20,000 nucleotides of DNA, taken from the IMG/VR virus record IMGVR_UViG_3300042298_001940. One strand, written 5' to 3'. Made by a program: the position numbers and the translations under genes. Below are positions 1,008 to 4,800 of the stretch, piece by piece. The stretch comes from an uncultured virus (IMG/VR IMGVR_UViG_3300042298_001940) (lineage: Duplodnaviria; Heunggongvirae; Uroviricota; Caudoviricetes). The notes beneath the pieces were generated by a model. The model saw nothing but the letters and a program-made list of their open reading frames with translations. It was not told the DNA's origin and ran no database searches. Numbering within the stretch: the stretch's first letter is position 1; each line of letters begins with the position of its first letter.

Positions 1008-1388
1008 ATGATGGAGTACAGGTTTCCAATAAATCCCATAGCTGCATCACGACCAAGAGTCAGCAGATATGGCGCGTATTTTACTGGACCCTATAAGAAG
1101 TTCCGTTCCGAGGCATCCTTGATAATTAACAGGGTACTCGGACGGAACTTCACTCCATTGTCTGGAAAGCTTGCAGTAGACATCGAGTGTCATGTAACAA
1201 GACCTAAGACAACAAAGCTAGAATATCCAAGGGCTGATGTGGACAACTACAGCAAGTCCATTCTAGACTGTCTTAATGGTAAGTTGTGGGATGACGATTC
1301 ACAGATCGTCGCTTTGTTCATTTCAAAGAAGTGGGCAAAGGAAGGTGAAAGTGGATACTTCACCGTATCTGTAGAAAAGATCAAGTAA
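1008..1388 (+). CDS. rusA: RusA-family Holliday junction resolvase
   Basis: N-terminal RPRV; catalytic DVDNYSKSILDCLNGKLWDDDSQIV motif (DxDN-x-K...D...DDxQI). Confidence 0.9.
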   Translation: MMEYRFPINPIAASRPRVSRYGAYFTGPYKKFRSEASLIINRVLGRNFTPLSGKLAVDIECHVTRPKTTKLEYPRADVDNYSKSILDCLNGKLWDDDSQIVALFISKKWAKEGESGYFTVSVEKIK

Positions 1389-1759
1389 TGAACATCGAAA
1401 AGTACAGCAAACTAGCCTGGACTGAGCTCAACAAGGTTGGTCTTCTTAGGAACTACAACCATGTGTCTGTCATACTGAGAAACAACGATGTTGTTTCCCT
1501 TGGTATCAATAGACGAAAGACACATCCTCTTGCCATGAAATATGGCTATAGGAATCAAGAACTCCACAGTGAGTTGGATGCCTTGATAAAGATTCCAAGG
1601 ATTCACAGAAACAATCTTGTTCTGCTCAACTTTAGGTTTGGTACACAGGGAGAGTTAAAGATGTCAAGACCATGCAGCCTATGCTTGCCTTGGTGCATTG
1701 CAACATTTGATGAGATATATTACTCTGTCCCTGATGGACTTGTCCAGATGGTGCTATAG
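1388..1759 (+). CDS. Zinc-dependent deaminase (cytidine/dCMP deaminase superfamily), substrate unknown
   Basis: HSE (HxE) in LHSELDAL, PCxxC in SRPCSLC, and an N-terminal HVSVIL..VVSLGIN strand typical of the CDA fold. Confidence 0.8.
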   Translation: MNIEKYSKLAWTELNKVGLLRNYNHVSVILRNNDVVSLGINRRKTHPLAMKYGYRNQELHSELDALIKIPRIHRNNLVLLNFRFGTQGELKMSRPCSLCLPWCIATFDEIYYSVPDGLVQMVL

Positions 1760-1768
1760 GGTTAGTGT

Positions 1769-1840
1769 GGAGGGTTGCCTGAGCGGTCAAGGAGTCGGCA
1801 TATAACCGACCACAGACAGGTTCGACTCCTGTACCCTCTA
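1769..1840 (+). tRNA. tRNA-Ile(UAU), atypical (A33, G48)
   Basis: Acceptor GGAGGGT/ACCCTCT, discriminator A; D-arm CCT..AGG with GG; anticodon stem GTCGG/CCGAC with loop CA-TAT-AA; T-arm ACAGG-TTCGACT-CCTGT. No encoded CCA. Confidence 0.75.
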
Positions 1841-1845
1841 TTGTT

Positions 1846-1929
1846 GGATCTGTGGCTGGAATTGGCAGACGCAGCGGACTCAAAATCTGCTTCCTATACG
1901 GAGTGTGGGTTCGACTCCCACCAGATCCA
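1846..1929 (+). tRNA. tRNA-Leu(CAA)
   Basis: Acceptor GGATCTG/CAGATCC, A73; Leu-type D-loop GGAATTGGCAGAC; stem GCGGA/TCTGC with loop CT-CAA-AA; long variable arm; GTGGG-TTCGACT-CCCAC. Confidence 0.93.
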
Positions 1930-2046: not shown

Positions 2047-2113
2047 ACGATCTTCGTCTAATGGTAAGGCGGCATCGACGGATGTAATGTAGGTTCGATT
2101 CCCACAGATCGTG
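2047..2113 (+). ncRNA. tRNA-like RNA lacking a normal anticodon loop (4-nt loop GACG); tRNA mimic or pseudo-tRNA
   Basis: Perfect acceptor ACGATCT/AGATCGT plus G; D-arm GTCT-AATGGTA-AGGC; stem GCATC/GATGT closing only GACG; 3-nt variable region; T-arm GTAGG-TTCGATT-CCCAC with one A.C mismatch. Confidence 0.75.
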
Positions 2114-2118
2114 TTGTT

Positions 2119-2192
2119 ATTCCTGTAGCTCAAGTGGATAGAGCAACAGCCTTCTAAGCTGTGGGTTACAGGTTCAAGTCCTGTCAGGAATG
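2119..2192 (+). tRNA. tRNA-Arg(TCT)
   Basis: Acceptor ATTCCTG/CAGGAAT; D-arm GCTC-AAGTGGATA-GAGC; stem ACAGC/GCTGT with loop CT-TCT-AA; ACAGG-TTCAAGT-CCTGT. Confidence 0.95.
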
Positions 2193-3090: not shown

Positions 3091-3323
3091 GTGATGGCAA
3101 ACCGCACCGTGTAGTTGTAGAGAAGTTTGGCAAGCGAAGACTTTGCAGGGTTACTGCATACGGCGAACCCCAATTAAGTTACACATCAGAGCAAATCTTG
3201 TGGGTTGAGCGTGGAGAAGATGAATATGCCATACCTCACTACAAGCCACCGTTCTGTGTCCTGTACCGAGAAGACTGGCTTATGGGTCAGGATCAACTGC
3301 AATCAAGCAAGGAGAACAAGTGA
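3087..3323 (+). CDS. Hypothetical protein
   Basis: ATGA/GTGA coupling with neighbours; AAGGA SD. Confidence 0.65.
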   Translation: MSDGKPHRVVVEKFGKRRLCRVTAYGEPQLSYTSEQILWVERGEDEYAIPHYKPPFCVLYREDWLMGQDQLQSSKENK

Positions 3324-3583
3324 AAGACAACCACAGCAATAGCGATTATGTCGAGACGGACACAAAAAAAAGGTGGGAGCAAGGCATCCCCCATCACCCA
3401 GAGTCTGAGAAGATTTTTGCCTTCCTCCGAAAGGCAGACGAGAAGTACGACTTCTTCGACTGGAAAGCGGGAGGTGACGGGGACAATGGAGAGGAGCTGA
3501 TGTATGCCCTTGATGTCTATTTTGACCTCAAGGATCGTGAAAACAAGGAGAGCAAGCGCCGTGCAAAGGAGGTGCAGCGATGA
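3320..3583 (+). CDS. Hypothetical protein (GIPHHP...WKAGGDGDNGEELMY motif)
   Basis: GTG start with AAGGAG SD; coupled to both neighbours. Confidence 0.7.
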   Translation: MKDNHSNSDYVETDTKKRWEQGIPHHPESEKIFAFLRKADEKYDFFDWKAGGDGDNGEELMYALDVYFDLKDRENKESKRRAKEVQR

Positions 3584-3711
3584 GCGACTACTGGGAACTG
3601 GATCTAGACCGCCTTGTGGGGTGCGGGCTTCCGCTATTGGCGGTCGCGCTCCTCGCCATCGGCGCAGCCGTGGGGCTGCTGATCGCGTACCTGATCTGGG
3701 GTGTCGCATGA
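3580..3711 (+). CDS. Small membrane protein, 43 aa (MSDYWELDLDRLVGCGLPLLAVALLAIGAAVGLLIAYLIWGVA); not in ORF track
   Basis: Translated by hand. SD AAGGAGG, ATGA overlaps at both ends, one long hydrophobic helix. Confidence 0.7.
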   Translation: MSDYWELDLDRLVGCGLPLLAVALLAIGAAVGLLIAYLIWGVA

Positions 3712-4187
3712 GCGACAACACAGACATCGTGCAGCGGCTTCGAGGACAGAGCGTCGGGGACTACTCCGTTTTGCTGTGGGAAGCCGCAGACGAAATTGAG
3801 CGCCTCCGCGCCAACCTCCCGCAGTTGTGGAGAACCAAGACAACCAACGCCAAGCTCCGCGCCGAACTCGCGCAGCGCACCGCCGAGCGCGACGCTCTCG
3901 CAGCCGAACTCGCCGCGCTCAAGGCCCACGACCCGCTCGCGGAGATGTGGCGGGAACTTGCGGAGTACCAGACGCAAGCCGACGCGGACGGACACGGGGA
4001 GTCGTGGCGCATCATGTGCAGCGAGCGGACGACACCAGCGGCGTGGGAGGCATGGGGTGATGCGGTACGGGTTTTAGCGCGCCACGAAGCGCGGGTTGCG
4101 GCTAGGTCTGCTGGCGATGCCGCGTCGTTACATTCGGCGTTTGACGCGGTCACCGCGATCCGTAAGGCGAAGGAGGCGAAGCGATGA
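3708..4187 (+). CDS. Hypothetical coiled-coil protein (MSDNTDIVQRLR...EAADEIERLR), high GC
   Basis: ATG at 3708 overlaps the previous TGA. The track's upstream extension from 3504 is a shadow of other genes. Confidence 0.7.
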   Translation: MSDNTDIVQRLRGQSVGDYSVLLWEAADEIERLRANLPQLWRTKTTNAKLRAELAQRTAERDALAAELAALKAHDPLAEMWRELAEYQTQADADGHGESWRIMCSERTTPAAWEAWGDAVRVLARHEARVAARSAGDAASLHSAFDAVTAIRKAKEAKR

Positions 4188-4445
4188 GCGACAACACTCT
4201 GACAAGAGAGAACCAGTTCTACGCGGAGATTGCCGCGCTCCGCACCGAACTCGCGACTGTAACTCAGGCGTTTAAAGCCAAGGCGGCGGAGCTCGCGCAG
4301 CGCACCGCCGAGCGCGACGCTCTCGCAGCCGAGAACGCCGACCTCAAGGACCGAATTGCAACGGCGTTGTTCGACAAAGCGGCGGTCGAGCGCGGCGTCA
4401 TGCGCCTCCGCGCCGACCTCGCGCAGCGCACCGCCGAGCGCGACG
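3867..4445 (+). repeat. Dispersed direct repeats encoding LAQRTAERD
   Basis: 41-bp exact copies at 3867-3907 and 4292-4332; their 28-bp core CTCGCGCAGCGCACCGCCGAGCGCGACG recurs at 4418-4445. Confidence 0.9.
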
Positions 4446-4597
4446 AGGCGCGGCGTGCTCTCTGCGTTTCCCAAGCCGTTGATTATTTGTGCGAAACGAA
4501 TCCAGACGAACCGATCTCGTACGACGAGACTCGCCGCATCGCAGCCGAGTTTGCCGCCGAGCGCGGCTGGGACTGCTTCAAGAAGGAAAACAAGTGA
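4184..4597 (+). CDS. Hypothetical coiled-coil protein with ERDEARRALC...RGWDCF motif, high GC
   Basis: SD AAGGAGG; ATGA overlap; C-terminus related to 2209..2439. Confidence 0.75.
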   Translation: MSDNTLTRENQFYAEIAALRTELATVTQAFKAKAAELAQRTAERDALAAENADLKDRIATALFDKAAVERGVMRLRADLAQRTAERDEARRALCVSQAVDYLCETNPDEPISYDETRRIAAEFAAERGWDCFKKENK

Positions 4598-4800
4598 GCA
4601 ACGAAGTTTGGTATCTGTTGTTTGATGGAACCAGTGTTGACGGTACAGGACCTGGAGAATACATAGGACGCACAACCGACTATGAAGAAGCACGCAAGCA
4701 CTATAAAAAGTGCGAGCGCAATCCATACAGTGTTGGAAAAGTAATCATTGTAACAGACACAAGACACGACCGTGCTTGGAGTCAAGATTGGAAGCATTAA
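4594..4800 (+). CDS. Hypothetical protein (MSNEVWYLLFDG...)
   Basis: GTG at 4594 overlaps the previous TGA; SD AAGGA. Confidence 0.6.
   Translation: MSNEVWYLLFDGTSVDGTGPGEYIGRTTDYEEARKHYKKCERNPYSVGKVIIVTDTRHDRAWSQDWKH

Follow-up and report, generated by a model that had tools for sequence, protein, structure and literature searches.

An A33-type tRNA-Ile(UAU) in a T7-like phage is a recurrent variant of a known phage tRNA

The gene at positions 1769-1840 is a real tRNA-Ile whose anticodon is UAU, having an A at position 33, and A33 is a recurrent minority among viral UAU tRNAs that is tied to one anticodon stem. The window, by which is meant the whole 20,000-nt stretch of DNA that was analysed, lies within the complete genome of a 70,995-nt virus with terminal repeats. 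The relevant features, in window coordinates, are these:

1388..1759, plus strand: deaminase-like ORF of 123 aa (HSE...PCxxC), ending 10 nt upstream of the tRNA and marking the syntenic slot in relatives
1769..1840, plus strand: tRNA-Ile(UAU) gene, A33 type, from ARAGORN, Rfam and reading of the sequence; A73 is at 1840 and CCA is unencoded
1769-1775/1833-1839, plus strand: acceptor stem, with G1·U72 and G4:C69
1778..1792, plus strand: D arm, with C10:G25, C11:G24, U12:A23 (1780/1790), G13·A22 and a D loop of 7 nt
1794..1810, plus strand: anticodon arm, GUCGG (1794-1798) with CCGAC (1806-1810), including C29:G41, G30:C40 and G31:C39
Within that arm, plus strand: anticodon loop of C32 (1799), A33 (1800), U34-A35-U36 (1801-1803), A37 and A38, from the sequence and Rfam
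1816..1832, plus strand: T arm, with an ACAGG/CCUGU stem and A51:U63
1846..1929, plus strand: tRNA-Leu(CAA) with U33, from ARAGORN and Rfam, in the same cluster
2047..2113, plus strand: tRNA-like element with a 4-nt anticodon loop, from Rfam, in the same cluster and outside the A33 claim
2119..2192, plus strand: tRNA-Arg(UCU) with U33, from ARAGORN and Rfam, in the same cluster

ARAGORN calls a tRNA-Ile(tat) at 1768-1841, and the Rfam RF00005 covariance model matches 1769-1840 at 43 bits (E 2.7e-6), above its gathering score of 29. The stems covary across nine distinct homologues, with 100% of positions paired, 18 two-sided changes and 0 of 500 shuffles scoring as high. It is on the covariance model and this covariation that the assignment rests, rather than on free-energy folding, which alone did not recover the cloverleaf (z -1.56). 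A shifted anticodon, in the AUA or CAU register, was rejected because the slipped stems fail to pair, with controls falling to 43-51% paired. The loop C-A-UAU-A-A, the GUCGG/CCGAC stem, A73, U12:A23, C29:G41, G48 and the short D loop are all confirmed as the preliminary description had read them. The gene itself encodes UAU in a 7-nt loop, as would be expected of a TilS-independent tRNA-Ile(UAU). From the set of bacterial tRNA-Ile identity elements in PMC9976931, the gene has A35, U36, A37, A38, A73, C29:G41 and U12:A23, and lacks C4:G69 (a minor element in E. coli, according to the same source), G16 and G34 or lysidine 34, having G4:C69, C16 and U34 instead. The preliminary description passes over the lack of C4:G69. 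Two general features of tRNAs are absent: position 33 is A (1800) rather than U, and G15 (1783) faces G48 (1815) in place of a purine15-pyrimidine48 pair.

Assembly error is ruled out as the origin of A33. Firstly, the gene is spanned without a single difference by contigs of X12 and X13, DNA runs that were not marked as its source; X17 and X19 left it uncovered. Secondly, a related phage is represented in the RNA libraries X20 and X22 by contigs that may derive from DNA and cannot reveal mature tRNA; these differ at 17 listed upstream positions and at none within the tRNA, while X18 and X23 left the gene uncovered. Thirdly, the gene is identical at 72 of 72 positions in two further relatives, L552 and L642, in which the DNA identity of the upstream ORF is 86% and 75% respectively, and three related phage lineages are fixed for A33. 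The cluster's tRNAs for Leu and Arg are conserved about as much between these relatives, and therefore the identity points to an absence of decay rather than to special selection on A33. A promoter and terminator scan returned chance-level hits only.

The UAU anticodon was thought to be rare when the sequence was first read, and this is not so in phages: the UAU pattern has about 2600 matching viral stretches overall, and in a capped sample of 120 loci, from 3 of the 64 parts of the set, ARAGORN called tRNA-Ile(tat) at 94, comprising 89 with U33, three with C33 and two with A33. The survey of A33 conservation that had been suggested therefore gave a divided answer. The variant is not unique to this contig, the case in which the initial description would have been refuted, since it recurs beyond the three related lineages in 55 distinct CGG-stem sequences; nor is it a conserved feature of phage UAU tRNAs, being present in two of the 94 sampled, and 27 of the 29 closest relatives carry U33. 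A complete viral scan for A33 gave 106 matches, of which 30 were tRNA-Ile(tat), ten of them from one near-identical family. Over all anticodons, A33 occurs in approximately 0.3% of viral tRNAs (about 180 versus 52,000 stretches). In the cleaned set, Ile-box anticodons account for 24 of 68 A33 tRNAs (UAU 9, AAU 8, GAU 7) against 7 of 144 U33 tRNAs, three of the latter being GAU, and outside UAU tRNAs G31 accompanies A33 (22/59 versus 20/140).

Two further scans, covering A33 patterns only, preselected the stem, and their counts give no cellular rate of A33. Across 185,579 prokaryote genomes (GTDB), an A33 pattern restricted to G30:C40 produced 11 matches and three ARAGORN calls; the sole intact-looking cellular A33 tRNA-Ile(UAU) found (L542:2950-3070, Aliikangiella coralliicola) sits between rtcB-rtcA RNA-repair genes, directly before it, and an SPFH gene. 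In metagenomes, the CGG-stem A33 arm gave 75 matches, 66 of them called Ile(tat), on contigs unclassified as to viral origin. The 99 neighbouring tRNA calls at these metagenome loci comprised 94 with U33, five with C33 and none with A33, and a phage-wide loss of U33 was rejected accordingly. Every pattern demanded a variable loop of 5 nt together with a GGTTC T arm, apart from one scan that used GTTC with a spacer for 5- to 8-nt variable loops, and therefore other tRNA shapes were missed. BLAST searches against 50,697 cultured phage records found T-arm matches only for this tRNA, in four records, and no match above 90% for two other A33 tRNAs. Separately, the identical 17-nt stem-loop occurs in a shared AT-rich, non-tRNA context in ten viral contigs (L001, L003, L004, L006, L007, L008, L011, L012, L013 and L017), and the tRNA-Ile of Pectobacterium phage PhiM1 (L737:141-238) has a UAU arm with an A31·A39 mismatch together with a second arm, the loop of which is CA-GAU-AA.

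The CGG/CCG stem (C29G30G31/C39C40G41) is probably typical of bacterial tRNA-Ile2(CAU). With position 33 left free, a complete viral scan for UAU loops on this stem gave 31 matches, 28 of which are ARAGORN tRNAs; position 33 in these is A in 16, U in 10, C in one and G in one (13, 9, 1 and 1 distinct sequences), leaving 18 of the 28 without U33, and the stem was not found among 95 sampled U33 UAU loops. In stem-unbiased sets, all three inner pairs were G-C in 15 of 21 A33 against 12 of 85 U33 tRNAs (p 6e-7, although relatedness of the sequences means that p-values overstate independence), and U63 was present in 16 of 21 against 10 of 85. In ordinary U33-type UAU tRNAs, a pair at 29-31 departs from Watson-Crick pairing in 50 of 90, compared with 11 of 143 other viral tRNAs and 5 of 46 whose anticodons are AU-rich; such U33-type tRNAs have U·G at 30:40 or 31:39 in 44 of 95 versus 3 of 154 other viral tRNAs, and G1·U72 in 29 of 85. 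Stem energy was rejected as the explanation of A33, because nearest-neighbour values separated these groups at best weakly, with no significant difference between A33-UAU and U33-UAU tRNAs (p 0.17, uncleaned set) or between U33-UAU tRNAs and those with other anticodons rich in A and U (p 0.22). The 55 distinct CGG-A33 sequences, from viral and metagenome contigs, form 37 clusters at 80% and 12 at 70% identity, averaging 52% identity outside the arm, with acceptor stems that vary yet remain paired. Hence A33 has outlasted the divergence of the rest of these tRNAs. A73 is kept in 62 of 66 A33 members, and C4:G69 occurs in 38 of 66 A33 versus 43 of 85 U33 members.

The sister tRNAs in the same genomic slot locate the difference more narrowly. 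In a survey anchored on the upstream deaminase-like protein (the best 80 of 298 loci), all 29 closest loci have a tRNA-Ile(UAU) within about 450 nt downstream, with U33 and U29·G41 in 27 and with A33 and C29:G41 in the two that belong to this clade. The 27 U33 sisters have four stem variants, and therefore represent few independent events; calls of 'Thr' tRNAs at these loci were rejected as misregistered tRNA-Ile(UAU). The odd D arm (CUGA...AGG, with G13·A22) is common to this tRNA and its U33 sisters, and therefore the short D loop and odd core characterise a body family, while A33 belongs to a stem module. A second such pair of sisters is formed by L286 and L259, with A33, and L562 and L578, with U33.

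The anchoring protein is weakly dCMP-deaminase-like, and its family (HSELDA...PCxxC) had no confident Pfam or PHROG match. At 77 of the best 80 of 298 loci of its homologues, ARAGORN at a relaxed threshold called a tRNA within 4 kb. The gene was present at 3 of 136 loci from three A33-pattern scans, all three from this clade, and relatives with the deaminase mostly have U33; a link between the deaminase and A33 was rejected on these grounds. Elsewhere in the cluster, the element at 2047-2113 scores 34.8 bits with Rfam, is missed by default ARAGORN and has the arm GCAUC-GACG-GAUGU; it is kept at 88% in L552, with changes that preserve pairing, and is absent from L642 and the phage of X20 and X22. 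Other short-loop tRNA-like elements stand just before tRNA-Arg(UCU) in L553 (6368) and L571 (6744). Further downstream, a GC-rich block at approximately 3500-4600 (about 55% versus 45%), with short coiled-coil-like ORFs, two of them with similar starts (MSDNT...), suggests an acquired module, and the match of an 87-aa ORF at 3320-3583 to PF02917 (20.3 bits, under the cutoff of 21.3) is probably due to chance.

The virus is T7-like, with genes for a ssDNA-binding protein, primase/helicase, Pol A, exonuclease and portal, and its sequence occurs in lake-water metagenomes; no host assignment was obtained, the nearest cultured portals being about 30% identical. Its tRNA set comprises tRNA-Lys(UUU), Ile(UAU), Leu(CAA) and Arg(UCU), and the complete genome has no match to TilS, class Ia synthetase (PF00133) or CCA-enzyme families. 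Of the Ile codons, AUA makes up 170 of 756 in the late structural genes, compared with 38 of 437 in the early and middle ones and 0 of 36 in two genes whose position and size led us to regard them as those for capsid and scaffold. The late genes are also richer in AGA, UUG and AAA, as well as in UUA (0.03 to 0.12), though the phage has no UUA tRNA, and therefore the codon signal is not specific. Slot, companion tRNAs and codon use together indicate that this is probably a working AUA decoder. The original suggestion of a TilS-independent decoder is partly supported, in that it agrees with the slot, with codon use and with the lack of a phage TilS.

Our preferred account of A33, a tentative one of rather less than even confidence, is that the host charges this AUA decoder and that A33, fixed in the family with the C29G30G31 stem, putatively damps misreading of AUG. 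Host RNases, CCA-adding enzyme, TsaBD and IleRS would mature and charge the tRNA, as might be expected of a phage without TilS, class Ia synthetase or CCA-enzyme matches, and tRNA-Ile(UAU) would then read, independently of TilS, the AUA codons of late phage genes. With a perfect Ile2-like stem, the UAU anticodon would be prone to wobble onto AUG; A33 would remove the U33 contacts of the U-turn, the base read by U34-modifying enzymes, or both, such that the weak U·G pair would fail and U-A would still work. In most other phage UAU tRNAs, a wobble pair at 29-31 would serve the same purpose, with U33 kept. The slot shared with U33 sisters, the coupling to CGG, the restriction of A33 to this gene among its neighbours, the covariation of the stems, the survival of A33 through divergence of the bodies, the stem wobbles of U33-UAU tRNAs and the AUA-rich late genes all argue for this account. 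The relevant background is that a UAU tRNA binds AUG on E. coli ribosomes (PMC3575796), that U33 makes U-turn contacts to positions 35 and 36 and is needed for a normal U-turn (PMC5041475), and that MnmM reads the U33 base (PMC9976899). TsaBD is described as independent of U33 (PMC13276492), and t6A37 should therefore survive. Rare G33 and A33 are known in mistranslating tRNAs, in which G33 curtails decoding, and a tRNA-ProX with A33 still translates in E. coli (PMC11415595).

Several observations count against a damping role. Firstly, U33 is retained in ten CGG-stem UAU tRNAs, and the 12 of 85 sampled U33 tRNAs with other all-GC stems would, scaled up, outnumber all A33 tRNAs; therefore stem strength alone does not force A33. 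Secondly, the enrichment of A33 extends to GAU tRNAs, which run no risk at AUG. Thirdly, CmoM is reported not to need U33 (PMC10516636), MnmM also favours U35, and a B. subtilis UAU suppressor derived from an ordinary tRNA-Ile1 is unmodified and barely reads AUG (PMC3919564). Fourthly, this tRNA is without C4:G69 and has G15·G48, and E. coli IleRS charges UAU at about 1% (PMC3575796). The U33 on CGG and other strong stems, together with A33 in GAU tRNAs, favours instead nuclease evasion, a founder effect or a fit to IleRS1. The broader generalisation, that phages have two mutually exclusive routes to a safe unmodified UAU tRNA, either U33 with U·G at 29-31 or a perfect Ile stem without U33, and that the A33/CGG class is a modification-free, AUA-specific decoder, is a speculative and rather unlikely one.

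Evasion of a nuclease, which we consider unlikely at about a fourth part of the balance, would leave the tRNA as a working AUA decoder, with A33 escaping a host anticodon nuclease that recognises a host-like Ile stem-loop (C29G30(G/C)31 with U33) and the stem wobbles of U33 relatives acting as other escapes. It would account for a coupling to the specific CGG/CCG sequence more than to stem energy, for the C33 and G33 also found on that stem, for the concentration of A33 in all Ile-box anticodons, for its near absence from cells in the stem-restricted genome scan, and for the position of the one intact cellular copy directly after rtcB-rtcA. There is precedent in the loop mutations of phage tRNAs near cleavage sites (PMC10264068), in Cash, which cleaves the loop of tRNA-Ile(CAU) ahead of a UC motif and is impaired by A substitutions (PMC13462974), and in HepS, for which tRNA-Ile(GAU) is a secondary target (PMC13043305). 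However, Cash cuts chiefly the T loop, which is standard in this tRNA, AriB cuts the stem of Lys, Thr and Asn tRNAs (PMC12409363), the phage's own Leu, Arg and Lys tRNAs have ordinary loops, and the literature searched described no nuclease specific for the UAU loop or needing U33 there.

A founder effect is improbable. Under it, A33 would have been tolerated in one ancestral anticodon-arm module, thanks to a stiff G31:C39 stem, and would have spread by phage recombination without benefit, which agrees with the 13-nt core common to most A33 members, with the presence of 37 of the 55 sequences in one cluster at 70% identity, with the company that G31 keeps with A33 in other anticodons, and with the low general level of A33 in viral tRNAs. 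Yet A33 persists despite acceptor stems rewritten with compensatory pairs, and the bodies that carry it are of at least two distinct D-arm types, one being the G13·A22 family, the other members of which have U33; moreover, the need for U33 in a normal U-turn (PMC5041475) means that reversion should be favoured. More doubtful still is that A33 improves charging by a bacterial-type IleRS, compensating, by means of a contact that links positions 33 and 36, for poor recognition of U34. S. aureus IleRS1 is reported to read U36 through the tRNA's own U33 (10.64898/2026.02.03.703510), from which an A33-U36 pair might be envisaged, and both the similar enrichment of A33 in AAU, GAU and UAU tRNAs and the CA-GAU-AA loop of the second PhiM1 arm are in keeping with such a role. 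It leaves the link to the CGG stem and U63 unexplained, however, and A33 in the PhiM1 arm may simply block decoding by that arm.

Least likely, and very improbable, is a non-decoding RNA, whether one that acts as decoy or sponge towards a nuclease, a synthetase or a toxin, or a substrate edited at 32-34 by the adjacent deaminase: the irregular core (G15·G48, short D loop, no C4:G69), the deaminase-like ORF 10 nt upstream and the 4-nt-loop element in the cluster would suit it, but the A33 tRNA occupies the slot where relatives have an ordinary U33 tRNA-Ile(UAU), U33 relatives have the irregular D arm as well, cores are standard in most A33 members, other A33 loci lack the deaminase, and 1799-1801 are unchanged in the two RNA-library contigs, which cannot show mature tRNA, so that the editing substrate envisaged at the outset gains no support.

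The A33 tRNA-Ile(UAU) is thus genuine and recurrent, and seems to be an undescribed variant within a known kind of phage tRNA, no description of A33 in a phage tRNA-Ile(UAU) having been found in a full-text literature search that covered main texts, mostly of papers outside subscription journals (the tRNA tables of PMC10264068 may bear on the point). U33 is regarded as near-invariant, and the 2024 review PMC11415595 calls the role of A33 unexplored. The natural family described here retains A33 in bodies that have diverged, and its U33 sisters occupy the same genomic slot, which allows a direct comparison of fidelity, charging and nuclease escape. Should A33 damp wobble, it would provide a design rule for phage tRNAs and a codon-reassignment tool; should it block a nuclease, it would point to an Ile-targeting defence not yet known. 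Were the two-route reading true, sister tRNAs differing only in the module would make the role of A33 directly testable, and the module would be a portable part for splitting the AUA/AUG box.

This tRNA resembles several known systems in part. It shares UAU, A37-A38 and A73 with the tRNA-Ile2 of Mycoplasma mobile (PMC3575796) and the G34U suppressor of B. subtilis (PMC3919564), as well as, in its putative role, the reading of AUA without lysidine. Those tRNAs are chromosomal and charged, with U34 unmodified and an adapted IleRS and ribosome, and the parts of the reports available make no mention of A33; the phage tRNA differs in being phage-borne, in relying on foreign host machinery, and in having A33 with a fixed CGG/CCG stem. 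In Streptomyces tRNA-ProX (A33) and Candida tRNA-Ser(CAG) (G33), as described in PMC11415595, a purine likewise replaces U33 where decoding is risky, and tRNA-ProX also has an odd 15-48 pair. However, these two have a mismatch between body and anticodon, and tRNA-ProX has its own synthetase, whereas the body and anticodon of the phage tRNA are both Ile. A dual identity of the tRNA-ProX type does not apply here, as most Ile elements are present and the genome has no PF00133 match (class II families being outside that search). The mycobacteriophage tRNAs of PMC10264068, the main text of which has no mention of U33, A33 or UAU, and the T5 tRNA-Lys that faces the AriB nuclease of PARIS (PMC12409363) have anticodon arms that depart from the host pattern, as here; the phage tRNA-Ile(UAU) would be a candidate member of this nuclease-resistant group, no nuclease being known for it. 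The closest comparison is with the ordinary U33 phage tRNA-Ile(UAU), which makes up about 95% of sampled viral UAU tRNAs: the anticodon is the same, 27 close relatives occupy the same slot with a homologous body, and the differences are that around half of these ordinary tRNAs have a wobble or mismatch at 29-31, and that most have G51:C63 rather than U63.
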